Source of the DNA: an uncultured bacterium
GTDB taxonomy: Bacteria; Patescibacteriota; Minisyncoccia; UBA6257; 2-01-FULL-56-20
Reading direction: 5' to 3'
Assembly (NCBI GenBank): GCA_963718515.1
Contig: OY970354.1
Location: 46,363 to 110,362 of the forward strand
DNA length: 64,000 bases
Of this stretch, positions 3,579 through 63,062 are shown piece by piece. Position 1 is the stretch's first letter. Every line of letters begins with the position of its first letter. The notes beneath the pieces are model-generated. The model was given only the letters and a program-made list of their open reading frames with translations, did not search any database and was not told where the DNA came from. The translations under genes were made by a program, and so were the position numbers.

Positions 3579-5702
3579 TTAGAGACTTGGGATGACCTGT
3601 ATGGTCGACCCCTGTGCGCAGGCGGCACCCGTAGAGGTGGCAATGAAGCCACCCGCCAAAAGTCCCTTCTGGCACGCCCCGACGCCGGGAGTATATTTTC
3701 CCGACACCGGATCGATCGCGCCGATATGGGTCACTGCCTCCCCGACGTTTGCGAGGATGTAGCTGACCATCAGCGTGGATTTCAGCGAACCGTCCCGGAC
3801 CGCGATCCCGATAGGGATCTCCGGCACCGCAATACTGTTCGTGATCGCCATATTTTTTCCATTCGACGTATCCGTGCTTATGGTAAGTACGAGTCCGTCC
3901 GATGTGGAGAGTACGGCGGCGGTTCCCGCGGCAGGTCCTTGGTTGAAGACCTGTATTTGGTATGAACCGGCGTTCAGGTTCGCAGTGCGGACGGTGCTCA
4001 CCGGAGTGAAACCGGTAAGTTCCACCGAACCGGCGTTGACTACCGTGTTCCCCGAGATGACGAACTTCGTCAATGTCGGCAGTCCGTTGGGAGACGACTT
4101 GTCCCGAGAGAGAACAAGGGCATCAAGTTCGGTACCGAGCTCCATCATCGCAACTGCCCATGGCTGACCAGGAAGGGAGACCGTCTGGTATCCACTGCAA
4201 TTGCCTTGATAGTCGCTGACCTCGCTCGCAAAGCCCACCAGGTTTGAGTAGGGCATCGTGAAGACGAGGCTCCCGCCCATCGCAGCGCCACTTGATATGT
4301 AGCTGACGTTGGGATTGAGGCCGCACTCGATGAGTCCGGTCTCGTCATTCACTGCAACCGAGGGAGGAACAGCGTCGCTGGAACTATATACCACCCCCGT
4401 GATGATACGGATGATATTTCCAACATCGTCTGCGGCCATGACTATTGGGCTTATGGCGGTTTTGCCCTGAAGCACGGTTGTCGTACCGTCAGTTGCCAGC
4501 ATATAGATACTGCCGGTGATCTCATCGTTTTCGAAAAGCGTTCCCGTCGTCGGTGAGGCAAATAGTGTACTCTGGCTCCCGCTTCCGAGGAAGGCGGTCG
4601 CCCACTGATTGCCATAGGAACCGTCTGGATGTTGGATTTCCCAGATCGGGCTAAATCCTGGCTCAAAGAATCCCTGTTGCCAACGTACGCCGACAACGAA
4701 ACTCGTCTGCCCGGATGACAATGAAAGCGGCAGGCTTCCAAAGCGCCCGGATGCGTCGTTCAGGATGTCTCCGTTCTCACTTCCAGCGGTAGCGAAAGAA
4801 TAGTTCGTGAAAATAAGATTGAACCAATCCATTGCTACGTATCGGGGAGTGAGCCCGGTGATCGTCGGTTGTGCTGGCGCCGCCGGCTTGACGGTGATCT
4901 TCACGCTGGCGGTTGCCGACGTGAAATCAACGGCATCGTTCGGGGTGAAGGCGGCAAGCAGAGTTTGTGACCCTGCCTTCGTCATCACGGTTCCCGCAGG
5001 CGGCGTATAGGCAAATGCTCCAGAAACGGATGACGTAGCATCAAGCTGAGCAGAACTCAGTTTGGTGCCGACGGTTACCGGGGCTGGTGTTGTCCAATTG
5101 ATCGGCGGCACTGCCTGATCCACGTTGATCGTCACTTTTTTGGTAACGGTCGCGTAGTCGACGGCGTCGGTCGGCGTGAAGGTTGCTGAAAGCGTTTGCG
5201 CTTTTCCCGCCGTGAGCACCGTGCCTAACGCGGGAGAGTAAGCGAACGTTCCGGCTACCGGTGATGTGGCGTTCAGCTGAGCGGAGCCGAGCGGCGTCCC
5301 GTAAACGATGTTTGCGGGATCGGACCAAGCGATGATCGATACCGCCTGGTCGACGTTGATCAAAACGGATGCCGAAGCATCGTTGTAATCAGTGGTGTCG
5401 CTTGGTGCGAAACTCACCGAGAGCGTTTGTCCTTTCCCGGCGTTGAGCACCGTGCCCGACGCGGGAGAGTAAGTGAACGTTCCGACTACGGACGCCGTGG
5501 CGTCCAACTGTTTTGAGCCTAGTGCCGTCCCATAGACGATGCCATTGGGATTGGCCCAGCTGATGGTCGGATTGGTCTTCGTAACAAACTTTCCACCCGT
5601 ATTTCCACCGCCACATCCTGTTGCGATGAATGCGATAACGCTCAGGCAAACAGGCCCGAGCGCACGGTACACTACAGACGCTGCAAAAGCCTTGCTGCGC
5701 AT
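3579..5702 (-). CDS. lipoprotein with three tandem YG-type Ig-like repeats and a large beta-rich C-terminal domain
   Basis: 707-aa ORF. The N-terminus ends in the lipobox-like IATGC. The repeat (I/P)xWxxPAxIVYGTxLxxxQLxAT..GTFxYSPAxGTVL is present three times. An AGGAGA Shine-Dalgarno lies 6 nt upstream of the ATG. Confidence 0.75.
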   Translation of the reverse strand: MRSKAFAASVVYRALGPVCLSVIAFIATGCGGGNTGGKFVTKTNPTISWANPNGIVYGTALGSKQLDATASVVGTFTYSPASGTVLNAGKGQTLSVSFAPSDTTDYNDASASVLINVDQAVSIIAWSDPANIVYGTPLGSAQLNATSPVAGTFAYSPALGTVLTAGKAQTLSATFTPTDAVDYATVTKKVTINVDQAVPPINWTTPAPVTVGTKLSSAQLDATSSVSGAFAYTPPAGTVMTKAGSQTLLAAFTPNDAVDFTSATASVKITVKPAAPAQPTITGLTPRYVAMDWFNLIFTNYSFATAGSENGDILNDASGRFGSLPLSLSSGQTSFVVGVRWQQGFFEPGFSPIWEIQHPDGSYGNQWATAFLGSGSQSTLFASPTTGTLFENDEITGSIYMLATDGTTTVLQGKTAISPIVMAADDVGNIIRIITGVVYSSSDAVPPSVAVNDETGLIECGLNPNVSYISSGAAMGGSLVFTMPYSNLVGFASEVSDYQGNCSGYQTVSLPGQPWAVAMMELGTELDALVLSRDKSSPNGLPTLTKFVISGNTVVNAGSVELTGFTPVSTVRTANLNAGSYQIQVFNQGPAAGTAAVLSTSDGLVLTISTDTSNGKNMAITNSIAVPEIPIGIAVRDGSLKSTLMVSYILANVGEAVTHIGAIDPVSGKYTPGVGACQKGLLAGGFIATSTGAACAQGSTIQVIPSL

Positions 5703-11010: not shown

Positions 11011-12091
11011 TCGTTATGTCCGCTCCAATAATATGCGGAGTTCCGATGGATTGAGTGAGTCAACTCGGCGTTGTCGAGCGTCACTTCTTTATTTTTTACC
11101 AAGTTTGCAAGCGAACGGTTAAGGGTGACCATCCCCTCCTGGAGGCTGGTCTCGATGACGAGATCGATCTGATAGGTCTTCCGTTCACGGATGAGGTTGC
11201 GGATGGCCGGGTTCACGATCATGATCTCCATCGCGGGAATGCGCCCGCCCGAGATGCGCGGGAGCAAGCGCTGATGGAGATGATCGCGACGAGCGTCGCC
11301 GCGAGCTGTGACGTGATCTGACCCTGCTGATCGGCGGGGAATGAATCGATGATGCGATCGATCGTCTGCGAGGCGGAATTGGTATGCAGGGTGGAAAGCA
11401 CCAAGTGGCCGGTTTCGGAAGCCGTCATGGCCGTGCCGATCGAAACCGCGTCGCGCATCTCACCGATCATCACGACGTCCGGGTCTTGGCGAAGGACGGT
11501 GCGGAGTGCCGCGTGGAAGCTCGTGGCGTCGCTACCCACCTCGCGCTGCGAAACAATGCATTTGATCTTGGGTAAAAAGATATTCCACCGGATCCTCGAT
11601 CGTGATCACGTGGTCGGTGCGGGTGTGATTGATCTCATCCACCATTGCCGCGAGGGTTGAGGACTTTCCGTGCCCGGCGGGACCCACCACCAGACATAAA
11701 TCCCTGCGAGAGTTGGGTGAAGTCATGCAGTAAGCGGCGGCAGATTGAGTTCTTCTATTGTTTTGATCCGCGTGGGGATGAGGCGAAGCGCGGCGGCAAG
11801 ATATCCGCGCTGGAAATAGACGTTCACACGGAAGCGTGCCTTCTCTTCAAAGCTATAGGCAAAGTCTACCTGCCGCTGGGTGATGAGCTTGGCTTTCTGC
11901 TCCGGCGTAAGCATCTGCGACATGATACCCTCCGCCGACTCCGGCGTCATGATCGGTTCTTTTTGGAGTGGTACGAGCACGCCGTCAATGCGGAGCGTTG
12001 GGCGGCGTCCGACTGCAAGGTGAAGATCAGACGCGCTTTGCTTCGCCGTCGTCGTCAAAAGGTTATCGAGCTGCTGTTTGTAATCGTCCAT
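11007..12091 (-). pseudogene. pilT: twitching-motility ATPase PilT, frame-disrupted (pseudogene or assembly indels)
   Basis: The homology runs through ORF fragments 11723..12091, 11532..11726, 11219..11539 and 11007..11267. These include the Walker A GPAGHGKS and the HLVLSTLHT motif. Reading the DNA near 11690-11730 needs two separate 1-nt corrections, so at least four frame changes in total. Confidence 0.8.
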
Positions 12092-12104
12092 GAGGTTTAT
12101 TATA

Positions 12105-13823
12105 TCACGCCTCCTCTGTTTCTCTAATAATTTCTTCTATGGAGACGATGCCTTTGAGCGCTTTTACGATACCGTCCTGGCGAAGGGTTATCATTCCCTG
12201 TTTTTTTGCCTGCTCAGTGATCTTTTGCGTGGTGACGCCAGTGTTGATACTATTTTCCACTTCTTTGGTCACAAGAAACGCTTCATATATCCCGGTTCTT
12301 CCTAATACGCCACGCCCCTTACATGTGGCACATCCTTGCGAATGATAGATCTGATACGGCGCAGTGAACTCCGCTTTGACGTCCGGAGAAAGATCTTCCA
12401 GAGCGGTTGCTGATCACTTTCTGTACCTCCGGCGACGCCGCTTCCGCAGATTTACAATCTGGACACAGGACGCCGACAAGACGCTGGGCGATCACCAGGT
12501 TAAGCGAGACAGGAAGGAGAAATGGCTCTACCTTAAGATCGATAAGACGTGGGATGACGCCGGCGGCGTTGTTCGTGTGGAGCGTGGAAAGCACGACGTG
12601 CCCCGTGAGCGCCGCCTGCACCGCAAGCCCGGCGGTCTCGCCGTCGCGGATCTCGCCGACCATGATCACGTCCGGATCCTGCCGCAATATCTGGCGCAAT
12701 CCCGACGCGAAGTCGTAGCCGATCTCCGGCCGCACTTGGGATTGGTTGATGCCTGAAACAAAATATTCCACCGGGTCTTCAAGGCTCACGATGTTCACGT
12801 CTTCCGTATTGAGCGTCTGGAGGAATGCGTACAGCGTTGTCGTTTTTCCGGAACCGGTGGGGCCGGTGATGAGCACCATGCCGAACGGCTTTGCAAGGCC
12901 TTTCTTGATGGTCTCGCGTGTGCGGTCGAGCAGGTCAACTTATCAAAACTTTTTAAACCGGTCGAAGGATCGAGCACGCGGATGACGATCTTCTCGCCGA
13001 GCGGCGTAGGGAATGTGGCGACACGAAAATCGATGTCACGGTCGAATAATTTTGCGCGGAAGCGGCCGTCCTGCGGCACGCGGTTCTCGTCGATTTTAAG
13101 GCTCGCGACCACTTTTATGCGCGAAGCGATCGGTTGCGCAAGCTCCGCAGGAAGGGATGCCACTTGATGCAGATCGCCGTCAATGCGCAAGCGGATGCGC
13201 AATGATTTTTGCTGGGGCTCAATGTGCACATCGGATGCTTTATTGAGCACCGCCTCTTTGAATGTATCAGCGACGATCTTGATGATCGGCGCATCCTCGC
13301 TCGCGCCTCCCTCGAGCTCGATCGCCTGCTGGCCACCCGTGCCTTCTTTTATATTAAGCGACTGCACCGCCTGCTCGATCTGCGCGCGGAACGGCGAATA
13401 TTTTCTGAGCACTGCCTGGAGGTCATTATATGAAATGAGATAGACGCCGAGATTGATGTGATTCTGCCGTGCGATGAACTTCATCGCTTCCTGCGCCTTC
13501 TCGTCATCCGGATGAAACATGCCGATCACGAGCAGATTATCCTGCAAGCTGATGGGGATCGCCTGATAAATGCGCGCGGTCTCTTCCGGCACGATCCCCA
13601 TCAACTTGGCATCGATCGTCTCGGGATCTATTTTTTTATAGGGGACCTTGAGCAGTTCGCTCTTAAGCTCCGCCATTTTTTCATCAGGAACGATGCGTTC
13701 GCGCCCGATGATGTCTTCGGCGGATTCGTTGTTCACGACCGCATCGCGCTTGAGCCGTGCCACGATCACATCGGTGATCAATCCCCGGCTTCGCAGTTGT
13801 TGGAGAAGTTCATCGCTCGTCAT
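12105..13823 (-). pseudogene. pilB: type IV pilus assembly ATPase PilB (GspE family), frame-disrupted
   Basis: Fragments are 12795..13823 and 12319..12879, plus a third frame that carries ALEDLSPDVKAEFTAPYQIYHSQGCATCKGRGVLGRTGIYEAF to a TGA at 12107-12105. The frame changes lie near 12940 and 12405. Walker A is GPTGSGKTT. Confidence 0.8.
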
Positions 13824-13846: not shown

Positions 13847-13911
13847 AAAAAGAGGCGGTCATTATTACCTCCCCGCAGATGATAGTTCGGTAATGATGAC
13901 CGCCTCTTTTT
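13847..13911. terminator. long bidirectional hairpin, loop family A
   Basis: 23-bp stem AAAAAGAGGCGGTCATTATTACC / GGTAATGATGACCGCCTCTTTTT with one G-T pair. The 19-nt loop is TCCCCGCAGATGATAGTTC (13870-13888). An A-run precedes it and a T-run follows. Confidence 0.7.
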
Positions 13912-24854: not shown

Positions 24855-24890
24855 TGGATGCTGGACCAGGTCTACTGTGTATAAACTAAC

Positions 24891-24953
24891 AAAAGAAACC
24901 GGCGTGTTCGCCGAACTATCATCTGCCGGGAGGCGAACACGCCGCTTTCTTTT
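24891..24953 (-). terminator. long hairpin terminator, loop family A, 6 nt downstream of tRNA-Arg(GCG)
   Basis: The stem is 22 bp with one mismatch. In minus sense the 19-nt loop reads TCCCGGCAGATGATAGTTC, which matches the loop at 13870-13888 at 18 of 19 positions. Confidence 0.7.
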
Positions 24954-24959
24954 GTTTTG

Positions 24960-25518: not shown

Positions 25519-25552
25519 AAATCCATTTTAGCACCTTTCCAGGAGAGATAAT

Positions 25553-25581
25553 AAAAATCACCGCCTCACGCGGTGATTTTT
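25553..25581 (-). terminator. intrinsic terminator after hup
   Basis: ATCACCGC-loop-GCGGTGAT is flanked by an A5 run and a T5 run. Confidence 0.7.
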
Positions 25582-25617
25582 ATCTTAAGATACTGAAGAA
25601 GGATCCTTTTTCAGCAA

Positions 25618-25893: not shown

Positions 25894-25988
25894 GATGATA
25901 ATTAATTTCTTTTTCCCGACCTTTTATGGATTGAACTCCTGTTTAGTATAGCAAAATCAGGGAAAAAGGGCACAAGGGGGCTGAAACG

Positions 25989-26018
25989 AAAATCCCCCGG
26001 CCGAAGCCGGGGGATTTT
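25989..26018 (-). terminator. intrinsic terminator after the 26065..29502 gene
   Basis: CCCCCGGC-cgaa-GCCGGGGG with flanking A and T runs. Confidence 0.7.
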
Positions 26019-26064
26019 CTATCACGCTAAGTCACAAGCGAAGCGCAATTTTGTACTGACGAGA

Positions 26065-29948: not shown

Positions 29949-30644
29949 CTATGCCGCCTGGGTCACCCGATAGAACACCGACGGTCCAGCGATTCCCACC
30001 CGCTCAATGAGATTTTGTTCAAGGAGTGTTTGTAAATCATAGCGAATAGTTCTCTCACTGCATTCCGGCAAAATTTCCTGAATATCTTTCAATCGGCAAT
30101 TGCCGGATTGCCGGATTCTATCCAAAATTGCCGTTTGCCGGATTGCCGATTTCAATATGCTGTTTATATTACTTGGCTGGTTTTGTTCTTCTTCCGTTGC
30201 CGGTTCTTCTATTTTTGCCGGTTCGATTGCCGATTGCCGGATTATTGCCGGTTCGGACTTTTTTGCCGGTTCAGGTTTCTGGAACGGTTCGCGCTCCGAT
30301 TTAGAGAATATTTCGGCAACGTCTATTTCCTGTCTTTTTACCTTATTCTTTGATTCGGCAATTGCCACATCCAGGACATATATCTCCTGAAGGATAATAT
30401 TGCTATTGGCAATCGCTATAAGGTTCACGTCTCCCGCAAACTTTATAAGGCACTCTGTGACCCGGAGAGATCGCTCCGCCATCGCATAATCCTCCGCCGT
30501 TGCCGCTTCCAACAATCCGGCACCACCTGCCCGGAGCCTTTCGGAAAAATCTTTTTCCTGCATATTCGCCGCCAAACGAAAGATCGCATAGGCTATCTCA
30601 TACGATTTGGTGAGAATAAAACGCTCTTTGCCGGATTCTTTCAT
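29949..30644 (-). CDS. DeoR-type winged-helix regulator with an N-terminal helical-bundle domain and an EPA-rich linker
   Basis: ORF 29949..30680 trimmed to the ATG at 30644. The C-terminus ILDRIRQSGNCRLKDIQEILPECSERTIRYDLQTLLEQNLIERVG matches the DeoR HTH pattern. Confidence 0.6.
   Translation of the reverse strand: MKESGKERFILTKSYEIAYAIFRLAANMQEKDFSERLRAGGAGLLEAATAEDYAMAERSLRVTECLIKFAGDVNLIAIANSNIILQEIYVLDVAIAESKNKVKRQEIDVAEIFSKSEREPFQKPEPAKKSEPAIIRQSAIEPAKIEEPATEEEQNQPSNINSILKSAIRQTAILDRIRQSGNCRLKDIQEILPECSERTIRYDLQTLLEQNLIERVGIAGPSVFYRVTQAA
30096..30117 (+). repeat. left copy of a 22-nt perfect inverted repeat GCAATTGCCGGATTGCCGGATT
   Basis: Its exact reverse complement occurs at 30657-30678. 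This copy lies inside the coding sequence and encodes IRQSGNC. Confidence 0.9.
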
Positions 30645-30651
30645 ATGGCGG

Positions 30652-30680
30652 ATTATAATCCGGCAATCCGGCAATTGCAA
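30652..30680 (-). promoter_or_regulatory. consensus-like promoter TTGCAA-N17-TATAAT ending 7 nt before the ATG (leaderless geometry)
   Basis: -35 at 30680-30675, -10 at 30657-30652, ATG at 30644. Confidence 0.6.
30657..30678 (-). repeat. right copy of the 22-nt inverted repeat, forming the promoter spacer of the same gene
   Basis: The plus strand reads aatccggcaatccggcaattgc. It overlaps the TTGCAA -35 box and abuts the TATAAT -10 box. Confidence 0.9.
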
Positions 30681-30704
30681 GAAATACGGCCTTTTGCCGG
30701 ATTG

Positions 30705-31419
30705 CTATAATACCCAGCGAGCGGAGGCGGTGACGATGACGAGCAGGGTAAAAATGATGGCGGACGTGGCGAATATCTTCTCCCGGGAAAGCTCGCCAAA
30801 AATGTAGCGGGGCACGAGATCGATAAATATCGTGGCGATAAGGAATACAATTGCCGATTGATAAACAAAGTCGAGCGGAAGGAAAAGTCCAACGATCAAG
30901 ACCTGCCATATAAGAACGAACGAAACCCAGCTCATCATGCGCACGAACGCGCGGCCTTCTTCGGGCGAGACCGCGAAATTTTTTACGAAGCTCGATGCCA
31001 TCGCGCTCATTGCCCATGCGACGAGAAGGCTGTATAGAAGCGACAGGCCCCCAAAATCTCCGCCCGCTTTCATGAAAAAGCTCCGCACCAGCAAATACGT
31101 GAGTATAAGCACAAGGATCTCATATGCCGACTTGCGATCGATGATGAGGAGATCCTTTATGAGAAGTATGAGGTAAAAAATACCGGCAAGGAGGACGGCA
31201 AAGAAGAGGTTCGGCGCCTCAAGAAGAGAAATAACAAGCACAACCAAAAACGGCAGCCGCAACCCTTCCGCTTCCTGCGATTGGGAAGAAATAGAGATAA
31301 AGCGCGACGAAGAAAAACAACCAGAATGGGAGCGCCAGCCACGCGGCGGCAAAAACAACGGCCCTAAGAACTAAAGACCAATGAATTCGCTTTAAAATTG
31401 ACTTTAACTTTTCCGCCAT
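30705..31419 (-). pseudogene. polytopic membrane protein, one frame change near 31260
   Basis: The N-terminal part (MAEKLKSILKRIHWSLVLRAVVFAAAWLALPFWLFFFVALYLYFFPI) lies in ORF 31219..31461. The rest lies in ORF 30705..31358. The start is uncertain because it overlaps the clpB 3' end. Confidence 0.5.
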
Positions 31420-34050
31420 CTTTGAATTCGCCGCGGATGATCTTATCCGCCAACCTATCAAGGATAACCTTCTGCATCAATCGCTTCAAGGGGCGCGCGC
31501 CATACTCCGCGCTGAAGCCTTCCTTTGCAAGGTGCGCGCGCGCGGCCGGCTCGATCTCGAGCTTGATGTGGCGGTCCGCCAGGCGCTTTTCGATGAGCTT
31601 GATCTGGATGTCCACGATCTTCTCGATATCCGCTCTTGCGAAGCGGGTTGAAGATGACGACGTCATCGATACGGTTCAAGAACTCCGGGCGGAAGCTGCG
31701 ATCGCAATGCCTCCATCACTTTTTCGCGATAATCCCCTTCCTCGAGCGATGCTTCGTTATCTTCCGAGCTAAAACCAATGCGCGACATGGCCTTGAGATA
31801 TTCGCTTCCAACGTTCGACGTCATGATGATGATCGAGTTCTTGAAGTTGACGGTCTTGCCCTTGCTATCGGTAAGGCGGCCATTGTCGAGCACTTGCAAA
31901 AGCAAGTTGAACACTTCCGGATGCGCCTTTTCGATCTCGTCAAAAAGGATCAGGCTGTATGGCCGATGGCGCACGATCTCGGTGAGCTGGCCGCCTTCTT
32001 CGTGGCCCACATAGCCCGGAGGCGAGCCGATCAACCGGCTGACCGCATGCCGCTCCATATATTCGGACATATCCACGCGCACGAGCGCCTTTTCATCGTT
32101 GAACATAAATTCCGCGAGCGCCCGCGCGAGCTCGGTTTTGCCGACGCCGGTCGGGCCGAGGAACATGAACGATCCGATCGGGCGGTTCTCATCCGAAAGC
32201 CCCGCGCGCGAGCGGCGCAATGCCGACGCGACGGAAGCGATCGCCTCGTCCTGGCCGATCACCCGTTCGCGCAAAACCTCTTCGATGCGAATCAGCTTGT
32301 CGCGTATCGGTCTCAAGCATCCGCTTTAAAGGAATGCCGGTCCAAACAGCGACGACCGCGGCAACGTCCTCTTTATCCACTGATTCCTTTAAGGAACCTG
32401 TCGGTCGTGGCGCCGGTTGCCGTGGCGGATGAGGAATTCTTTGATTTCCGCGATTTTGCCGCTGCCGGGCCGCCAAAATTCTTCTTTTCGAACATCTGAA
32501 AATCCTTCTCGGCTGCGGGCAATTCGCCATAAATGATCTGCGCCACACGCTCAAGATTGCCTTCACGCTCGGCCACTTCCGCCTCGCGCTTTAAGTTATC
32601 CACTTTTTGGCGAAGCTGGTGCAAAGTCTCGAATTTTATCTTTTCCGAATGCCATTTGCTTGAAAGCTCGTCGTTCTGCTCTTTTAATAGCGCGAGTTGT
32701 TTATCGATCTCTTTGATCCGCTCGTGGTGACGCTTTTCTGCCCTTCTTTGACAAGCGCCTGCTTTTCGATCTCCAGGCGCGTGATCTCGCGGCGCGCCTG
32801 GTCAATTTCTTTCGGCAAACTCTCCGATCCAAGCCGGCGCGCCGCGGCGGCTTCGTCGATAAGATCCACCGCTTTATCCGGCAAAAAACGGTCGGTGATG
32901 TAACGCGCGGAAAGATTGACGGCCTCGATGATGGCCTCGTCGCTGATGCGCATGCCATGATGGATCTCATATTTTTCTTTAAGCCCGCGCAAAATAGAGA
33001 TCGAATCCTCGATCGATCGGCTCCTCTACTATGATCGGCTGGAAGCGCCGCTCGAGCGCCGGATCCTTCTCTATATATTTCTGATATTCGCGGATGGTCG
33101 TCGCGCCGATCGCGTGCAGTTCGCCGCGCGCAAGCGCCGGCTTGAGCAAATTCGAAGCATCGATCGCGCCTTCGGCGGCACCCGCGCCGACGATCGTGTG
33201 GATCTCATCTATAAATAAGATAATATTGCCGGCCGCGTTCTTCACTTCTTTCATAAACGCTTTCAAGCGATCTTCAAATTCGCCGCGGAATTTTGTTCCG
33301 GCGATGAGCGATCCGAGATCGAGCATCAACACCTGCTTGCCCTTAAGAAGCTCCGGCACGTCGCCCGAGGCGATGCGCTGAGCCAATCCCTCTACGATTG
33401 CGGTCTTTCCAACGCCCGGCTCGCCGATAAGGCACGGATTGTTCTTGGTGCGGCGCGAAAGCACCTGCATCAAGCGGCGCAATTCTTCCTCGCGGCCGAT
33501 CACCGGATCAAGCTCGCCTGCCTTGGCTTTGTCGCTCAAATTGATCGCATATTTTTCCAACACCTGGAATTTGCTCTCCGGCGTTTCGTCCGTGACGCGC
33601 ACCGAACCGCGCAACTGCGCCAAAACCCGGAAAGCGCTCTCGCGGCGGACGCCAAATTTTTCAAGCAACGATTTTGCCGTACCTTGCACATCGAGGAGCG
33701 CCAGCAAAAGATGTTCGCACGAAACAAATTCATCTTTTTGCTGCGCAGCAATCTTTGCCGCCTGGTCGAGCACTTTCATCAATTCCTGCGAAAGATAGAG
33801 CTGGCCGAGCGCGGAATTGCTCACGATGGGCGGAATGCGATCGAGCTCGAGTCTCGATCTGTTCATCCAGCTGTTCGAGATTGACCCCGGAGCGCTCGAG
33901 CACCGGAATGACGAGCGACTGCTCGTCTTCTAATAACGCCGCAAGCAAATGAAGCGATTTCAACTCGCCATGATTCTTCTTTGCCGCGATCTCCTGCGCA
34001 TTCTGCAAGGCTTCCTGCGCTTTTATAGTGAAACGGTGAAAGTTTGGCAT
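31364..34050 (-). pseudogene. clpB: ClpB chaperone (AAA+ disaggregase), multiply frame-disrupted
   Basis: The homology passes through fragments 33730..34050, 32979..33866, 32684..32992, 32373..32624, 31663..32316 and 31364..31666. Both Walker A motifs are present ([16 protein letters not shown]), as is the middle coiled-coil. At least five frame changes. Confidence 0.85.
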
Positions 34051-41659: not shown

Positions 41660-42094
41660 TTATTTCGCAAAAGTTATATAAGCAAAATAACCCACGACCG
41701 CAATCGCGACGATCGCCACCAGAACGACGATCAATATTGGAACTAGGTGACTTTCTGGTTGGTCGCCCGAAACGTCTTGTTGCGCTGAAGCATCGGGGGA
41801 TTGCGCCGCTGACGCAGGCGCAGATGTGGGCGCTTCCGTAGGCGTTGAAGCAGACTTTGTTGCAATCTCAGCCACCGCCGGTACCGTGGGCTGTTGCCGT
41901 TCTGCAAACGGCGCCTGAGCCTGAACCGGCGAATGATATCCCTTTTCTATAGAAAGCCCCGAAACGTTCACGTTCTGGAATTTCGGCATTCCTCCCCCAC
42001 TGCTGCGCATGGATGCGAGGTCCGAACGCATGGTGCGAATCTTGATCTCCGACGGCGGAGGCGGTGCGCCAGTAATGACGGTCTTGTCTTCCAT
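41660..42094 (-). CDS. tail-anchored membrane protein, Pro/Ala/Ser-rich
   Basis: 144-aa ORF with a C-terminal TM (LVPILIVVLVAIVAIAVVGYFAYITF). It is convergent with recA. Confidence 0.5.
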   Translation of the reverse strand: MEDKTVITGAPPPPSEIKIRTMRSDLASMRSSGGGMPKFQNVNVSGLSIEKGYHSPVQAQAPFAERQQPTVPAVAEIATKSASTPTEAPTSAPASAAQSPDASAQQDVSGDQPESHLVPILIVVLVAIVAIAVVGYFAYITFAK

Positions 42095-42120
42095 ATAACA
42101 CTCATTTTACCATATAAAAC

Positions 42121-42181
42121 AAAAAGCCCTCTCCTTTGGCCGAATTATTCTTATCACGAGGCCAAAGGAGAGGGCTTTTTG
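42121..42181 (-). terminator. long hairpin terminator, loop family B, directly after pnp
   Basis: The 21-bp perfect stem is AAAAAGCCCTCTCCTTTGGCC / GGCCAAAGGAGAGGGCTTTTT. The 18-nt loop is GAATTATTCTTATCACGA (42142-42159). Confidence 0.7.
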
Positions 42182-42183
42182 TT

Positions 42184-44333
42184 TTATACCTCCATCTGCT
42201 TCAGCGACAAGCCGATTTTCCCGTTCTCTGCTTTGATGATCTTTGCGCGGACGCGGTCGCCGAGATGCACGACGTTTTCCACCTGCTTCACAAATCCCTG
42301 CTTGAGCTCCGAGACGTGGATCATGCCGTCGTTGCCGCCGCCGAGATCGACGATCGCGCCGAACTCGAGGATCTTCACGATCGGCCCTTCAACGATCTCG
42401 CCCACTTTGAATTCTTTGGTAAGACCCAAAATCTCCGCGACCGCGGCTTCGACTTTCGCAAGGTCAACGCCGGAGACATACACTCCGCCGTCTTCTTCTA
42501 TATCAATGCCAGCGAGTGAATATTTTGCGATAAGGCCATTGATCATTTTGCCGCCAGGGCCGATAACGGTGCCGATCTTCGCCGGATCGATCTTGAACTG
42601 GCGGATCTTCGGCACGAACTGCGAGATCGCATCGCGATGTTTTGGTAATGTCGCCTTGATCGTTTTCAAAATATGGATGCGCGCGGCTGCTTTGCCTGTT
42701 CAAACGCTTCTTCCAATATCTCCATAGTGAGTCCGTCCACTTTGACATCCATCTGCATGCCGGTCACGCCATCGTTCGTTCCCGCAACTTTGAGATCCAT
42801 ATCGCCATGATGGTCTTCGGGGCCTTGGATGTCGGTCAGCACTTTGTAATTATTCACATCGGCCATACCGTCCGCATTGAACGCCATCATGAGTCCCATC
42901 GCGATGCCCGCGGCCGGCTTCTTGAGCGGCACGCCGGCGTCCATGAGCGAGAGCGACGGACGCGCACACTGTCGCCATGCGAGGACGAACCGTTGGATGA
43001 CATGATTTCCGAAACAACACGGATCGTGTACGGGAATTCTTCCTTGCTCGGGATCAATCGCTCAAGCGATTTGCGCGCAAGATTGCCATGGCCGATCTCG
43101 CGGCGCCCGGGCCGCGGAATGAACCGACTTCGCCAACCGAGAACGGCGGGAAGTTGTAGTGCAACATAAAACGCCGCTTGCCGGTGGTCTCCATCGTCTC
43201 GATCATCTGCTCGGCTCCGGGCGCCGCGAGCGTCGTTATCGCGAGCGCCTGCGTATTGCCGCGCACAAAAAGCGCCGAGCCGTGCGTGCGCGAGAACAAT
43301 CCCACTTCGCCATCAAGCGCGCGAACTTCGTCAAGCTTGCGGCCATCGGGACGCTGTTCCTTTTCTAAAACATTCTTATGGACAAGGTCATTCACCATCT
43401 CGTCGTAGAAAAATTCCACCGCCTTCCAATTGATACTTGTCTTTCGTGGCGCCGAACTTTTCTTTGATGTGCAGAATGAGCTCGTGATGGAGCGCGCCGA
43501 CCGCGGTCGTGTGTTCCACTTTTGTCGGCTTATAGATCGCCGCCTCGAGCTTGTCCGCCAGGAACGCGCGCACTTCCGCCTGAATGTCGGCATCGGGCTC
43601 TGCGAGCGCAACCTCCGTCTTTGGCTTACCGATCTCCTTCCGGATGTTCTCCTGGAACGCGATCAGCTTGTTGATCTCGCCCTGCGCGAGCGTGAAGCCC
43701 GCGACGACGTCTTTCTCTTGCGCATCCAAGCCGCCAAGCTCGATCATGTTGATGCGATCCTTGGAGCCGGAAACGAACGCATCGAATATCGGCAGGTTCG
43801 GTTCGGCGACGGCGCTGTTATCCGGATTGATGATAAATTGTTTGTCCGCAGTTTTTTGCGCGACGCGCACACCCGCCACCGGGCCATTCCATGGGATGTC
43901 GGAGATAAAGAGCGCGGTCGAAACGCCGAGCAGTCCGACGAATTCCGGATCGTTCTGCTCATCGATCTGCAATACCGTCACGACCACCTGTATCTCGCGG
44001 CGCATTTTGTCGTTGAAGAGCGGGCGGATGGTGCGGTCGACCAAGTCGGCCGGCGAGGATCGCCTCTTCGGACGAGCGGCCTTCGCGGCGCACATAGCGG
44101 CTGCCCAAAATTTTTCCTGCGGCATAGAACTTTTCTTCATAATCCACTTTGAGCGGCAGGTAATCGATGTCGCTATCCTTACGCGCCATCACCGCCGTCG
44201 CGAGTACCACTGTCTCGCCATACTTTGCGATCACTGCCGCATTCGCCTGCTCGGCCAACGCCGAAATCTCTATCGTCAACGTCTTTCCTGCGATCTCAAC
44301 CGAAAATGCTTTTTTTGCAACATATATTTTGAT
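42184..44333 (-). pseudogene. pnp: polynucleotide phosphorylase, multiply frame-disrupted
   Basis: The homology runs through fragments 43959..44279, 43388..44140, 43054..43611, 42666..42944 and 42184..42669 (KH and S1 domains at the end). The likely ATG at 44333 is out of frame across an A7 run. At least five frame changes. Confidence 0.85.
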
Positions 44334-44472: not shown

Positions 44473-45160
44473 TTAATGACTGTCCGACTGCGGCCTCTTG
44501 CTTCTCCCCACAAACCGCGGCTTCATGATCGCGCGCGGGACGGTCTCAATATTTACGAACTCGTCCGCGGCTTCCACGATCTTTGATGATGCGCTCCGTC
44601 TGAATGCGGCGACCTCGACCACTCGCCCGCCTCCCCATTTTACGTAATTGACCAACGGAATAAAATCGCCGTCGCCCGTCACCAAAATGATCACATCGAG
44701 GAACGGCATCATGCGGATGACGTCCACCGTCAGGCCAACATCCCAATCGCCTTTCTTCATGCCGCCGGCGTAGATCTGCAAGTCTTTCATGCGCAATTCA
44801 AGTCCGGCTTTTTCGAGAGCTTCAAAGAAGCTTGCTTCAGAAGATGCGCCGCCGCTCGAATCGCCATTGCCGCTACCACTACCATTCCCATTTGCCGACG
44901 CCGGCGCGAGCGAAACTGCCGCCGCCTGATCCTTTTCCGCCATGCGCGCGTGCGCGCCACGCGCCTGCTGCGGCTCCACGCCTTCACTCCGCACCACGTA
45001 CGCCATGGCGCGGATCAGCTGGCGGCCGCCGACAAGGTGCTTTATAAGTTCCGCATAATTGACGCGGCCCTGATATAGATTTTTTGCTGAGTGATACAGA
45101 TTCGACACATCAACAAAAATCCCAACACGCTGGTTGGAATAATTTGGTTCCTTGCTTCAT
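44473..45160 (-). pseudogene. NYN-domain (LabA-like) nuclease family protein, probable frame change near 45135
   Basis: ORF 44473..45108 carries the DWDVGLTVD and VTGDGDF motifs. The first strand, NQRVGIFVDVSNLYH, is only open upstream in the same frame without a start codon. An ATG at 45160 lies in another frame. Confidence 0.6.
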
Positions 45161-45166
45161 TATTTT

Positions 45167-45427
45167 TTAAGATCGAGCTTCTTGATCAAGTTTTTCGTAC
45201 GAAGAAGGCTCGTGCTTCTTCATGTACGCGAGCAGTTTTCTGCGCTTTGAGACCATCTTCAAAAGGCCGCGGCGGGAATGATTATCCTTCGGATTTTTCT
45301 TGAGATGTCCGGCCAATTCATCGATCTGGCGGGAGGTCATCGCGATCTGCACCTGGGCAGAACCCGTGTCTTTATCGTGTTTCTTATTTTCCCCGACGAT
45401 GCGGGATTTTACTCGTTTAGTAAGCAT
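45167..45427 (-). CDS. rpsO: 30S ribosomal protein S15
   Basis: 86 aa. The segment TGSAQVQIAMTSRQIDELAGHLKKNPKDNHSRRGLLKMVSKRRKLLAYM is a canonical S15 core. The last ~7 residues may be affected by a 1-nt indel. Confidence 0.85.
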   Translation of the reverse strand: MLTKRVKSRIVGENKKHDKDTGSAQVQIAMTSRQIDELAGHLKKNPKDNHSRRGLLKMVSKRRKLLAYMKKHEPSSYEKLDQEARS

Positions 45428-45743: not shown

Positions 45744-45779
45744 AAAACATTGTGCGACACATCGGCGTATAATGAAGCT

Positions 45780-46726
45780 ATGGCAGAAAAAGTGACGGCA
45801 AAAAAAACTGTTCCAAAGACGGAGATCGAGCGGCTCCTCCAAGATTATTTGAATTATCTCGAGATCGAAAAAAATCGGTCGCCGAAGACGAGCGAGAACT
45901 ATAAGCACTATCTCGGCGAATTCTTGAAATTTGCAAAAATATCCCGGCCTGACGAAATCACGGACAGCGTGGTGCGCGAGTTCCGTTTAGCGCTCGCGCG
46001 GCGCGAAGGCCTTAAGCGCATCACGCAGGGATACTACGTGATCGCCTTGCGTAATTTTTTGAAGTATTTAGCGCGGCGCGATATCAAGGCGCTCTCGGCG
46101 GAAAAGATCGAGCTCCCCAAAGTGCCCGGACGCCAGATCGACACGCTTGAGTATGGTGACCTTGAGCGCCTACTCGCCGCTCCAAAGGGCGATTCACTCC
46201 GCGACCTGCGCGACAAAGCAATCCTCGAAATGTTTTTCTCGACCGGCCTGCGTCTCGCCGAGCTCTGCGCACTCCCCCGTGGGATCGACCTCAAGCGCGG
46301 TGAAATGTCCGTGCGTGGCAAGGGCGACAAACTGCGCGTCGTATTCATCTCCGACTCCGCGCGTGAGGCGGTGAAGCGCTATCTTGGGCGCGCGCGGCAA
46401 AGGGCGGTGGCGATGCCATAGAGGAAAAGTTGTTCGTCAGCCTCGACCGGCGCGGCAACGTGATCGGCCCCATCACCCCGCGCGCCGTCCAGCGCCTCGT
46501 CGCCGCGCGTGCCGTCCAAGCCGGCATCCCCAAGCATATCCATGCGCATCTGCTCCGCCACAGCTTCGCCACCGATCTATTGGTGAACGGTGCCGACCTG
46601 CGCTCCGTGCAAGAGCTCCTCGGCCACGCAAATATTTCAACAACGCAGGTCTACACTCACCTCACGAACAAGCAGTTGCGCGAAACACACAAGGCGTTCC
46701 ACGGAGTGAGGAGAGTAGAAAAATAA
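45780..46726 (+). pseudogene. xerC: tyrosine recombinase XerC/XerD family, one frame change near 46400-46425
   Basis: The N-terminal SAM-like and core domains lie in ORF 45750..46421 (ATG at 45780 preferred). The catalytic C-terminus ([12 protein letters not shown]...[15 protein letters not shown]) lies in ORF 46430..46726. Confidence 0.8.
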
Positions 46727-46730
46727 AACG

Positions 46731-46790
46731 CATAGCTATTGAGCGAGTGGACGTTCCTACGTCGGAGCGAAATAGCTATGGGTTTTTATT
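46731..46790 (+). terminator. terminator after the xer gene
   Basis: 10-bp stem CATAGCTATT/AATAGCTATG with a 30-nt structured loop, followed by GGTTTTTATTTT. Confidence 0.5.
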
Positions 46791-46927
46791 TTGCAGCGGT
46801 GCAGGAGATGGGACGAAGTTGGAACTATCGTCGCCCTAAGTTATATATAGGATTTTAGCAGGAATTTTTTATCAGGGCTACTCGCGATTAGGATTGCGTA
46901 GTTTCCGCGAAGGATTATACTTTTCGT

Positions 46928-47668
46928 ATGTTCACGCCAAAAACCAAGAGGATCGACGAGCTGGCAAAGAAATTCCCCGACCGGATTGCCGAACTGGAAG
47001 GCATTTTCAATCAGAAAACGAATGTCTATATCGACTATGCCAACATCAGGCCTTGGGCGAATAAATTAGGATGGCACATTGAACCACGACGATTGAAGCA
47101 ATTTTTGGATTCTTTTGATACCGTTCATGCAGTTAATTTTTATAACGGCACATTGACGGGCGATTCTGATTCCGAAGTTTTTATGGCTGAGATAAGGCGG
47201 TATGGCTTCAATGTCCATACGAAGCCGGTCAAGAAGATGAAGCTCTCTATCGACGTTTCAAGTATCCCGTCCAATTCACCGGATATTCTAAAGGATTTTA
47301 TTCGTAAGCCCTTACTCCAGAAACTCAAGATTGAAACAACCGAATTTTTGAATGGCCAACTGAAAGACCTGAACAGCCAAGGGGTTTTATTCATCGAAGA
47401 CCTCAAGTGTAATTTTGACGTGGAAATCGGCAGAGATATGCTGCTTGATGATAAAAATAGGGTAACCAGCTTTGTGCTTTGGAGTGGCGACAGCGATTTC
47501 GCCGATCCAGTTCAGCAATTATTGGGCGATGGCAAAAGAGTCGTTTTATTCGCGACGGCCCGCCGCGTTTCTTCGGAACTTAACGCGCTCACCCACAAAG
47601 GACTATTCATTTTCGATATTCAAAAGATCAGAGATTTTATCTGCTGGAAAAAAGAAATAGCCCCATAA
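46928..47668 (+). CDS. NYN-domain (LabA-like) nuclease family protein
   Basis: 246 aa. Motifs are VYIDYANIRPWA, NFDVEIGRDML and LWSGDSDFADPV. The promoter TTGCGT-N16-TATACT ends 6 nt before the ATG. Confidence 0.7.
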   Translation: MFTPKTKRIDELAKKFPDRIAELEGIFNQKTNVYIDYANIRPWANKLGWHIEPRRLKQFLDSFDTVHAVNFYNGTLTGDSDSEVFMAEIRRYGFNVHTKPVKKMKLSIDVSSIPSNSPDILKDFIRKPLLQKLKIETTEFLNGQLKDLNSQGVLFIEDLKCNFDVEIGRDMLLDDKNRVTSFVLWSGDSDFADPVQQLLGDGKRVVLFATARRVSSELNALTHKGLFIFDIQKIRDFICWKKEIAP

Positions 47669-53046: not shown

Positions 53047-53075
53047 AACAAAAAGCCCCGCGTGGGGGCTTTTTG
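53047..53075. terminator. bidirectional terminator
   Basis: AAAAAGCCCC-loop-GGGGCTTTTT lies between convergent genes. Confidence 0.75.
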
Positions 53076-61621: not shown

Positions 61622-62717
61622 ATGCCACAAATCGAAGACCCGAAAGCAACTGCCGTCGCGCAGGCGCTCAAAACGGAGATTTCCACCACCGACTGGCCCA
61701 AGGAAGGCAGCGTGGTAGAGGTCACCCTGCTTAAGAAACTCCACCGCAAAGCCTACTTTGATATGGGCCGCTTTGGCACCGGTATCGTGTTCGGCGCAGA
61801 GATCGCGAACGCGCGCGAAGCCATCCGCAATCTCAAGCCGGGCGACAAGCTCCAGGCAAAGATCGTCACGCTCGACGGCGAGGAAGGAGACATCGAGCTC
61901 TCGCTCTCCGAAGCCGGCAAGCAGAAGCTCTGGGCAGCATCGCAAAGGAACTCACCGAGTCGGGCGAGGTCATCAAGGCAAAGATCGTCGGCGCGAACGC
62001 GGGCGGACTCATGACCGTTGTCGCGGAAGAATTGAAGGCATTCCTTCCCGTCTCTCAGCTTTCCCTCGAGCACTATCCCAAAGTTCCGGACGGTGATCGC
62101 ATCAAGATCGCAGAGGAATTGAAAAAGTTTGTGGGCCAGGAATTGAACGTTAAGATCATCGACGTCAATCCGCGCACCAATAAAGTGATCGTCTCGGAGC
62201 GCGAAGTACTTTCCGCGAACGTGAAAGAATTGCTCAACGCGTACGCCGTCGGCCAGGTCGTCGACTGCATGGTGTCCGGCACCGCAGACTTCGGCGTCTT
62301 CGTCCGCTTTACCGACAACCCGCAGATCGAGGGCATGATCCACATCTCCGAGCTCGATTACAAATTGATCGACAATCCGAAAGAACTCGTAAAGGTGAAC
62401 GATCCGCTCAAGGCAAAAATTATTGATATAAAAGAGGGCCGCGTCTTCCTTTCGCTCAAAGCGCTCAAAGAGGATCCGTGGGTCAAAGCCGGCGACACAT
62501 TCAAGCCGGGCGAGACCGTGCAAGGCAAGGTCTACAAGTTCAATCCGTTCGGCGCAGTCGTTGCGCTCGACGGCGACCTCCAGGGCATGGTGCACATCTC
62601 CGAGTTCGGCGGCCAGGATGAAATGAAAACGCACTCACCGTTGGCCAGAGTTATCCGTTCGTAGTGGACACGGTCAAACAGGAGGAAAAGCGCATCACGC
62701 TGAAGACGAAGAAATAA
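61622..62717 (+). pseudogene. rpsA: ribosomal protein S1-like (multiple S1 domains), two frame changes
   Basis: The fragments are 61622..62014 and 62011..62664, plus a third frame ending VGQSYPFVVDTVKQEEKRITLKTKK with TAA at 62715-62717. Four S1-type OB motifs are present (for example GxVxxxxxFGAFVxL-like segments). Confidence 0.8.
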
Positions 62718-62718
62718 C

Positions 62719-62773
62719 AAAAAGCCCTCCTTCACCTCCAGACAGATGACCGTTCGGTGAAGGAGGGCTTTTT
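62719..62773 (+). terminator. long hairpin terminator, loop family A, after the S1 gene
   Basis: The 18-bp perfect stem is AAAAAGCCCTCCTTCACC / GGTGAAGGAGGGCTTTTT. The 19-nt loop is TCCAGACAGATGACCGTTC (62737-62755). Confidence 0.7.
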
Positions 62774-62825
62774 GTTTCTTTACTTCACATGGAAAATCCG
62801 ATATTCTAAAACCTGAATTAAGGAC

Positions 62826-62896
62826 GCCGCGATAGCTCAATGGTAGAGCACTCGCCTGAAGAGCGAGCTAAGTGAGTTCGATTCTCTCTCGCGGCA
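62826..62896 (+). tRNA. tRNA-Phe (anticodon GAA)
   Basis: Acceptor GCCGCGA/TCGCGGC, D-arm GCTC-AATGGTA-GAGC, anticodon loop CTGAAGA and T-loop TTCGATT. Confidence 0.85.
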
Positions 62897-62914
62897 CAAC
62901 ATCAGCGTCTTAAT

Positions 62915-62984
62915 AAAAAAGAGGGACAGATGTTTTCAGCAAATTATTCTTATCACGAGTTGAAAACATCTGCCCCTCTTTTTT
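62915..62984. terminator. long bidirectional hairpin, loop family B, between convergent tRNA-Phe and tRNA-Arg
   Basis: The ~26-bp stem AAAAAAGAGGGACAGATGTTTTCAGC / GTTGAAAACATCTGCCCCTCTTTTTT has one mismatch and one G-T pair. The 18-nt loop is AAATTATTCTTATCACGA (62941-62958). Confidence 0.7.
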
Positions 62985-62990
62985 GCCTTG

Positions 62991-63062
62991 TGCCCTCGGT
63001 AGGAATCGAACCTACATAACCAGCTTAGAAGTCTGGAGTTCTATCCATTGAACTACAAGGGC
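62991..63062 (-). tRNA. tRNA-Arg (anticodon TCT)
   Basis: Acceptor GCCCTTG/CGAGGGC, D-arm GTTC/GAAC, anticodon loop CTTCTAA (one A-G mismatch at the stem end) and T-arm GTAGG-TTCGATT-CCTAC. Confidence 0.8.

Follow-up and report, generated by a model that had tools for sequence, protein, structure and literature searches.

Conserved-centre palindromes, probably bidirectional terminators, behind pnp and tRNA genes of a Patescibacteriota bacterium

Introduction

Why should two terminator-like hairpins of one bacterial genome, the first behind pnp and the second between two convergent tRNA genes, carry practically the same tip on quite different stems? The question is raised by a 64,000-nt stretch of contig OY970354.1 (positions 46,363 to 110,362 of the forward strand; assembly GCA_963718515.1), here called the window, from an uncultured member of the Patescibacteriota, or Candidate Phyla Radiation (CPR). 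A first-pass annotation of the window had noticed the match and had proposed a modular system of interchangeable loops on terminator scaffolds. We consider it probable that both hairpins are lineage-specific repeated DNA palindromes, serving as bidirectional terminators and 3′-end hairpins in soil and peat CPR bacteria, above all behind tRNAs. The case is made by the membership of both in a family, by the terminator anatomy of that family, by its link to tRNA genes with a marked bias of orientation, by arm covariation confined to Watson-Crick pairs, and by replacement, inversion and loss of the centre between orthologous loci. The habitat label derives only from two metagenome-assembled genomes (MAGs) whose isolate names refer to SPRUCE and MFD; MFD we take to stand for Microflora Danica. 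Coordinates are collected in Table 1, and loci fetched from other genomes and metagenomes are given L numbers.

The two hairpins of the window

The hairpin behind pnp is real, and the 21-bp stem first assigned to it is too short. Its arms pair perfectly over 29 bp (100% complementarity) around an 18-nt centre, GAATTATTCTTATCACGA; the + strand of the whole reads TATAAAACAAAAAGCCCTCTCCTTTGGCC-gaattattcttatcacga-GGCCAAAGGAGAGGGCTTTTTGTTTTATA, and in RNA of pnp sense the centre is UCGUGAUAAGAAUAAUUC. The minimum free energy on the gene-sense strand is -50.7 kcal/mol (z = -10.1 against shuffled sequences), and a covariance model of this centre and its arms, which we call class B, scores the minus strand at 79.1 bits. 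The hairpin between the tRNA genes has a stem of 24-26 bp with two mismatches (one A.C, one G.T) and looks, from these, to be a decaying copy. Its centre, AAATTATTCTTATCACGA (also given as aaattattcttatcacga, and UCGUGAUAAGAAUAAUUU in the sense of tRNA-Arg), agrees with that of pnp at 17 of 18 positions on a differing stem, and C:G closes both centres, just as had been described; it has z = -6.8 on the gene-sense strand and 68.4 bits on the minus strand.

The window holds exactly two copies of the 17-mer from the class B centre. If as many as three mismatches are allowed, chance predicts 0.23 occurrences, and none of 100 shuffled windows held two or more. The covariance model found no class B copies in the window beyond these two. 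The AAAAAG(A/C) start that had been seen as common to the two stems is present, but it is generic for terminators here, being found also in the simple terminator at 53049-53075.

The centre had been taken for an open loop of 18 nt. Compensatory changes indicate that this loop holds a mini-stem and a tetraloop: GAATT-AT-TCTT-AT-CACGA becomes -CG-TCTT-CG- in L092 and -CT-TCTT-AG- in L110. Together with semi-conserved flanking pairs, the pattern of changes argues for a centre made of a 2-bp mini-stem, a tetraloop cap (AAGA in gene sense) and non-canonical flanking positions. ViennaRNA predicts no stable fold for this tip. Compared by eye with the DnaA box, parS, dif, the LexA box, the -10 promoter element, the K-turn, the CsrA GGA-loop and attC, the centre fits none of them.

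Breadth of the family

Exact matches to the class B 17-mer were sought in 185,579 species genomes. The raw count, 72, is at the level expected by chance (~70). The 16 matches that lie at the tip of a long perfect hairpin (the remainder have no stem) all fall in three CPR MAGs: 11 in CAYQFA01, three in JBEKBG01 and two in CAVVHF01. In metagenome contigs a 20-mer was matched at 85 loci, nearly all from a small set of Joint Genome Institute (JGI) sample series, and a 22-mer scan of viral contigs gave no match. Genomes and metagenomes together contain 93 class B hairpins, among which some 70 stems are unique. The annotation had called for a search for its loop B outside the window, and had conceded that confinement to two loci through a local duplication would tell against its proposal. 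Loop B is on many stems in three MAGs and at 85 metagenome loci, and the feature is therefore a family and not a local duplication.

The class B covariance model, run over the fetched loci, added few new variants. Element density is about one per 10 kb. Of 162 class B centres, ten are no more than 35 nt from the end of a contig or locus; hairpin repeats of this kind apparently break short-read assemblies. The contigs of L005, L093, L094, L108, L162 and L164 end inside these hairpins.

Rfam in gathering mode passed only the tRNAs of the window, and in E-value mode it returned, for three hairpin-rich loci, only sub-threshold matches resembling miRNA precursors. We found no description of these elements in the searchable literature on terminators or palindromic repeats of CPR bacteria (Patescibacteria). 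The palindrome family apparently is undescribed, and any function beyond termination is conjectural.

Stem anatomy and evolution of the arms

The element is built of three layers: an outer stem with an A-run, a GC-rich part and a T-run; a semi-conserved inner stem; and an asymmetric centre that is conserved in sequence. Among 66 unique class B hairpins the median stem is 27 bp and 43 stems are perfect; A-rich heads are present in 51 and T-rich tails in 48. Bidirectional intrinsic terminators are built in this way, with an A-run head and a T-run tail, and the class B hairpins have both the anatomy of intrinsic terminators and their position at gene 3′-ends. The stem is semi-conserved where it adjoins the centre (YTTTCNGSC; for example TTTCAGC, TTTCTGGC, TTTCCGCC and CTTCGCC), and farther out it is locus-specific.

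With about 70 unique stems, the claim that one centre sits on unrelated stems is supported. The further idea of free scaffolds holds only in that the stems differ. They are not arbitrary, for whole-hairpin subfamilies recur at different tRNAs: the subfamily AAAAAGAAGGAnAGGTnTTTTCAGC is found at tRNA-Tyr, Lys, Ser, Leu and Val in different genomes, and also in the window between tRNA-Phe and tRNA-Arg.

How the arms evolve was followed in an alignment of 70 unique class B hairpins, with 20 pairs on each side of the centre (1400 cells). Standard pairs are formed in 97.1% of the cells, and at 19 of the 20 pair positions changes are seen on both sides; in the ascertained set the 18-nt centre does not vary. 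Covariation scores 0.965, compared with 0.228 for shuffled arms and ~0.18-0.22 when the partner column is slid. The 55 cells that are not Watson-Crick comprise 14 GT/TG, 24 AC/CA and 17 others, so that on the transcribed strand G.U is not in excess over A.C (14 vs. 24 among 1400 cells). High pairing without such an excess argues against selection on a single RNA: either palindromy of the DNA itself is what is maintained, or both strands need to pair. The last 3-6 nt of the tRNA belong to the stem in several independent loci, and behind pnp the stop codon (42184-42186) is inside it. Pairing at the DNA level, with stems that reach into tRNA ends and a stop codon, fits arm-to-arm templated correction.

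Association with tRNAs and orientation

Of 92 class B hairpins, 56 (61%) start between -6 and +30 nt from a tRNA 3′-end, and the tRNAs concerned have many anticodons. The centre reads UCGUGAUAAGAAUAAUUC in the tRNA-sense RNA in 53 of these 56, and when only unique tRNA trailers are counted the ratio is 43:3. Two of the three exceptions belong to convergent pairs, namely tRNA-Phe/tRNA-Arg of the window and L081, where a minus-strand ORF ends 16 nt away. Protein genes show a weaker bias, ~15:6 by crude ORF calls; since these calls are too noisy, orientation was judged from the tRNAs and from aligned orthologues. In two of the fetched loci (L059, 7467-7541; L156, ~1648) ARAGORN reports tRNA-like genes of no assigned identity, with a two-base 'anticodon' (gc).

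Other centre classes

Class B is not alone. The three loop A hairpins of the annotation are real, and the count of loop classes has to be raised from two to at least five. At least four tip classes besides B occur in the same genomes, and four hairpins of those classes are in the window. With the two of class B, the 64-kb window has six such module hairpins, all of them intergenic, and the element is thus both multi-copy and extragenic. The class A centre is GAACKRTCATCTNNNNGGA (three window copies). Class C is GACGG-tcACGTtcctACGTggcattt-CCGTC, and class C′, with one window copy, is GAGCGAGTGG-ACGT-TCCT-ACGT-CGGAGCGA. Class D is GTT-GTG-TCTG-CAC-GGCA, with GCG/CGC and GAG/CTC as variants of its inner pairs. 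Further classes of various sequence are seen among the long hairpins of the fetched CPR loci.

Some of the classes may be related. The class A hairpins score 29-34 bits with the class B covariance model in the UCC...GUUC orientation (31 bits for the one behind tRNA-Arg(gcg)), which is consistent with a distant relationship between A and B. The class B copies in L119, L121 and L144 have GAGCGA...GAGCGA flanks like those of class C′, and these tie B and C′ together. In L081 (~2070-2200) a stem, AGCTTTTGAAAGG/CCTTTCAAAAGCT, surrounds a centre of ~60 nt where L148 (356-418) and L125 have class C; the long centre may be a larger or composite module. The window also has simple terminators with loops of 4-5 nt. 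One of them, CAAAAAGCCCC-gcgtg-GGGGCTTTTTG at 53049-53075, resembles the outer part of the module hairpins alone.

Turnover at orthologous loci

Between orthologous loci the centres are swapped, flipped, lost or left to decay. The pnp 3′ region was fetched from relatives in which the C-terminus of polynucleotide phosphorylase (PNPase) is 79-86% identical at the nucleotide level (51-69% at third codon positions). At this site the window has class B; L161 and L164 have class C′ (sense UCGCU...AGGA/UUGA...CGCUC), L163 has class D and L165 another class. In L162 the contig stops within a stem, and L158 lacks a hairpin (z = 0.09). The window, L161 and L162 have similar outer stems, AAAAA(C)GCCC.... 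An all-against-all comparison of flanks adds the site upstream of pilB, where the window has class A but L067, L157 and L120 have class B; the stems are recognisably related. Of these loci, L157 and L067 are collinear at ~80-85% identity, and their class B centres are mutually inverted in a direct alignment.

Similar exchange is seen elsewhere. L136 (class B) and L142/L078 (C′-like) have a common outer stem, AAATAAAAATA.CC, with different inner modules. A class B hairpin follows tRNA-Pro in L144, and none is present in the orthologous L002. L003 and L086 differ by one single-nucleotide polymorphism in the centre. The hairpin at tRNA-Arg(tct), orthologous to that of the window, is truncated in L002 (1405-1434) and L096 (minus strand, ~1369), two different genomes, where the left arm and GAATTATTCTTAT are joined directly to the tRNA end. 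The shared junction points to an old deletion inherited by both. A search by half-sites for class B centres split by a larger element gave chance matches and two truncated relics only.

The alternation of loop classes at a given locus across relatives, which the annotation had suggested looking for, is borne out at the pnp 3′ and pilB-upstream sites, as is the presence of several loop classes in one genome. The swapping, flipping, loss and decay support its idea of interchangeable modules; they argue against an indispensable, orientation-specific role at every locus.

Proposed mechanism and alternatives

In the mechanism we propose, the hairpins would end transcription in both directions. During replication, quasipalindrome template switching would correct one arm from the other, and so keep the arms perfect and extend them into tRNA ends and stop codons. 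Centres and inner stems would be copied from one terminator to another by ectopic template switching or conversion through the common T-rich/A-rich inner stems, or else may spread by a transposition-like process, and switching within a hairpin would flip them. The centre might be conserved because a cellular factor reads it, in trailer RNA or in single-stranded DNA, or because it drives its own copying.

Several points weigh against this reading. Termination is a deduction from anatomy. The apparent invariance of the 18-mer is inflated, since exact-match scans capture unchanged centres only; roughly half of the extra class B copies within the fetched loci are variants. If the centres were mere passengers of copying at the DNA level, neither the 43:3 bias at tRNAs nor the identity of centres in genomes with only ~80% identity in the flanks would be explained. 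Sense-RNA signals, for their part, would not be expected to be inverted at the pilB locus or to show a weaker bias at protein genes. Nor was any enzyme or mechanism that spreads the centres found.

One rival explanation makes the centre an RNA signal. A dedicated protein or RNase would bind or cleave the tip (UCGUGAUAAGAAUAAUUC, with the AAGA tetraloop) in the 3′ trailers of tRNAs and mRNAs, for 3′ processing, for decay of an otherwise indestructible hairpin or for release of a stable trailer-derived small RNA, and the classes would be alternative ligand sites. The strong bias relative to tRNA transcription (53:3, or 43:3 for unique trailers), the location 0-15 nt after the tRNA end, the covarying inner mini-stem and the identical centres amid diverged flanks all suit such a signal, as does C′ behind pnp (L161, L164) and tRNA-Pro (L125) with the same UC...AGGA/AAGA...UC sense. 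A signal of this kind should not, however, be inverted between orthologous mRNA sites (L157 vs. L067), give way to unrelated classes or to nothing at the same locus, or be left to decay. In the window, C′ reads in the opposite sense (GAGCGA) to its copies behind pnp and tRNA-Pro of relatives, 9-mers that could pair with the loop are not in excess elsewhere (10 vs. ~5 expected), and neither ViennaRNA, with no stable fold of the tip, nor Rfam, with no match, lends support. We regard this explanation as possible, on the doubtful side. Similarly tentative is the wider proposal that conserved-centre, free-arm palindromes are a previously undescribed genomic element, whose cassettes (A, B, C, C′, D and others) colonise, replace one another and flip in CPR terminator hairpins and tRNA 3′ flanks, as selfish conversion drivers or as sites for a clade-specific factor. 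That the centre and inner stem form a miniature mobile element, inserted specifically into the loops of pre-existing terminators and into tRNA 3′ flanks by a transposase (e.g., an HUH/Y1 enzyme that works on single-stranded hairpins), with a bias that follows the replication strand, seems unlikely to us. The lack of target-site duplications and terminal inverted repeats, the variation of inner stems within one genome, the absence of copies from viral contigs and half-sites that give no hint of a full-length parent are all difficult for it. Pfam found no transposase and no RAYT among ~58 ORFs of the window, an Xer-like protein being the only recombinase, and tblastn of E. coli RayT against CPR sequence, covering part of any genome searched, gave a best E of 1. 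It would, on the other hand, make sense of the simple terminators of the same genomes, which resemble outer stems with a 4-5 nt loop, of modules replaced on a conserved outer stem, of presence/absence polymorphisms, of the many copies at which contigs break (10/162 occurrences within 35 nt of an end), and of several coexisting classes, as in the REP sequences of E. coli.

Two other explanations can be set aside with more assurance. A site in double-stranded DNA, with the 18-bp centre bound by a tyrosine recombinase, a roadblock terminator protein or a nucleoid protein and the arms incidental, would tolerate inversion of the centre and would agree with Watson-Crick-only arms; an Xer-like recombinase gene adjoins the window copy of C′ and another stands beside rpsO in L160, and the C′ centre can by inspection be read as 11+6+11 with 6/11 arm symmetry. 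Yet recombination among dozens of dispersed sites would scramble the chromosome, the centre is by inspection unlike the DnaA box, parS and dif, and it would be left unexplained why each copy forms the tip of a long gene-end palindrome and why it is oriented at tRNAs. We think this very improbable. That the loop match in the window is due to chance, to recent local duplication or to an assembly artefact is refuted, even though, in the raw genome count, the 17-mer is no commoner than chance predicts (72 vs. ~70) and the window assembly is indel-prone: two copies are found in 0/100 shuffles, their stems differ, hairpin-embedded matches are confined to three CPR MAGs, the 85 metagenome loci are overwhelmingly on long hairpins, and the elements are present in contigs with names in the style of SPAdes, MEGAHIT, JGI and long-read assemblies.

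Relation to known systems

The annotation had held that the feature class could not be named. This remains apt for the layout, a conserved centre with free arms being the inverse of what is seen in repetitive extragenic palindromes (REP), in REPIN and in miniature inverted-repeat transposable elements (MITE), but relatives can be named: repeated extragenic palindromes and bidirectional intrinsic terminators. With the latter our elements have in common the A-run, GC-rich stem and T-run at gene 3′-ends and between convergent genes. The loops of ordinary terminators are short and unconserved; the present hairpins differ in their perfect Watson-Crick stems of 20-33 bp and in tips of 17-30 nt that are conserved by class and common to many loci and genomes.

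In BIME and REP, too, there are several sequence classes per genome. REP, BIME and REPIN are multi-copy extragenic hairpins, often at gene 3′-ends, where termination or mRNA stabilisation is possible (PMC3116915, PMC3337134). The present family is likewise multi-copy, extragenic, hairpin-forming and of several classes. It differs from REP and REPIN, which have conserved arms and a variable spacer, in having a conserved centre and free arms (19/20 pair positions vary), and differs also in its CPR host clade and its tight association with tRNA 3′-ends. No RAYT homologue was found by the partial tblastn search with E. coli RayT described above (best E 1). MITE were rejected, since each locus has outer arms of its own and the copies are not flanked by direct repeats.

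Inversions of hairpin loops are known from chloroplasts. Quasipalindrome template switching, arm-to-arm copying at the DNA level that is established in E. coli, perfects and extends palindromes and can invert the loop (PMC7202029). It could account for the Watson-Crick-only covariation, the growth of stems into tRNA ends and the inversion between L157 and L067. It differs in being a mutational mechanism of single sites, and leaves the conserved centres and their transfer between loci unexplained. We know of no genome-wide family that is maintained in this way.

Other systems place a repeated sequence in terminator hairpins at many loci, such as the paired uptake sequences of Neisseria (DUS) and Haemophilus (USS) and the Correia MITE terminators. 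There, the repeat is the stem or the whole element and the copy number is far higher, whereas here only the tip and inner stem are repeated. The 3′ external transcribed spacer RNAs of tRNAs (3′ETS-leuZ of E. coli) are structured trailers that follow a tRNA and can persist as small RNAs; the present case differs in that loop-complementary targets are not enriched and the same element also follows protein genes. The attC sites of integrons have R″/R′ boxes (RYYYAAC/GTTRRRY) at the base, an unpaired central spacer and extrahelical bases, and are used by the IntI integrase. They were rejected as a model, because the stems here are perfect and without a bubble, AAC/GTT motifs are at the outer ends and not at inner positions, and the genes are tRNAs and pnp rather than cassettes.

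Gene context in the window

The minus strand has, in this order, rpsO, an NYN-domain gene (a predicted RNase), pnp, the class B hairpin and a 144-aa ORF; recA, a gene for a helix-turn-helix (HTH) protein and ftsK lie before it on the + strand. The NYN-domain gene is conserved between rpsO and pnp in the clade (L159, L160), and a second one follows the class C′ hairpin. An integrase gene similar to the Xer-like one of the window adjoins rpsO in L160.

By its PNPase homologues the organism belongs with Parcubacteria-type CPR bacteria; an exact look-up of the RecA of the window matched no record. In the closest relatives (L158-L160, ENA contigs with long-read-style names) pnp is likewise in pieces, and the split of pnp in the window is therefore most likely due to assembly indels and not to pseudogene formation. 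The pilB-like and clpB-like genes are also in pieces, which again looks like indel errors of long reads, and the Xer-like gene is split by a frameshift.

The 144-aa ORF downstream of pnp probably has a near-leaderless promoter of its own, given the extended -10-like sequence that abuts the hairpin. TAAAAT-like -10 boxes are in the same place in L158 (~5125-5135) and L160 (~4825-4833), 7-10 nt before the start codon, and the extended TGn form is present in the window and in L160. The placement of these boxes next to start codons suggests leaderless or near-leaderless mRNAs in this clade. The window carries in addition a type IV pilus cluster and a ComFC-like gene. At 30060-30705 there are ~15 copies of TTGCCGG(A/T)TT in both orientations, within an ORF whose C-terminus has a DeoR-type HTH; the cluster is probably a coding repeat.

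Table 1. Positions of the hairpins, genes and other features of the window (position 1 is its first nucleotide).
Feature	Position	Strand	Remarks
Class B palindrome, terminator-like, after pnp	42113-42188	-	Arms 42113-42141 and 42160-42188, centre 42142-42159
Class B palindrome between convergent tRNA-Phe (+) and tRNA-Arg(tct) (-)	62915-62984	-	Centre 62941-62958
Class A palindrome directly 3′ of tRNA-Arg(gcg)	24888-24956	-	+ strand centre GAACTATCATCTGCCGGGA
Class A palindrome between two minus-strand genes	13847-13911	unassigned	Upstream of pilB-like gene
Class A palindrome upstream of tRNA-Phe	62716-62776	unassigned	Perfect 21-bp stem, + strand centre tccagacagatgaccgttc
Class C′ palindrome just after Xer-like gene	46719-46792	+	GAGCGAGTGG-ACGT-TCCT-ACGT-CGGAGCGA
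Simple terminator	25551-25583		Loop of 4-5 nt
Simple terminator	25988-26019		Loop of 4-5 nt
Simple terminator	53049-53075		Loop of 4-5 nt
pnp (polynucleotide phosphorylase)	42184-44300	-	~5 frame pieces; 5′ end (~44300) approximate
144-aa ORF	41660-42094	-	ATG at 42092-42094
Extended -10-like TGGTAAAAT	42104-42112	-	Abuts hairpin, 9 nt before the ATG of the 144-aa ORF
NYN-domain gene	44473-45108	-	Between rpsO and pnp
rpsO	45167-45427	-	
Xer-like tyrosine recombinase gene	45750-46839		Frameshift-split; class C′ hairpin directly after
Second NYN-domain gene	46928-47668		
tRNA-Phe(gaa)	62826-62897	+	Convergent with tRNA-Arg(tct) across class B hairpin
tRNA-Arg(tct)	62990-63062	-	3′ end 5 nt from class B hairpin
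pilB-like gene	11219-13823		Several frames or short ORFs
clpB-like gene	31364-33866		Several frames or short ORFs
243-aa ORF	29949-30680	-	DeoR-type HTH at C-terminus

Concluding remarks

The tiny genomes of CPR bacteria are believed to contain hardly any repeats. Against that background, a family that is present at about one copy per 10 kb and shapes most tRNA 3′-ends would count as a notable feature of their biology. The elements offer a natural system for the study of how long perfect palindromes are kept up at the DNA level and how short cassettes move, and the hairpins could be used as strain markers. Should it be true that a protein reads the centres, they would mark a new layer of 3′-end processing in an uncultured phylum.

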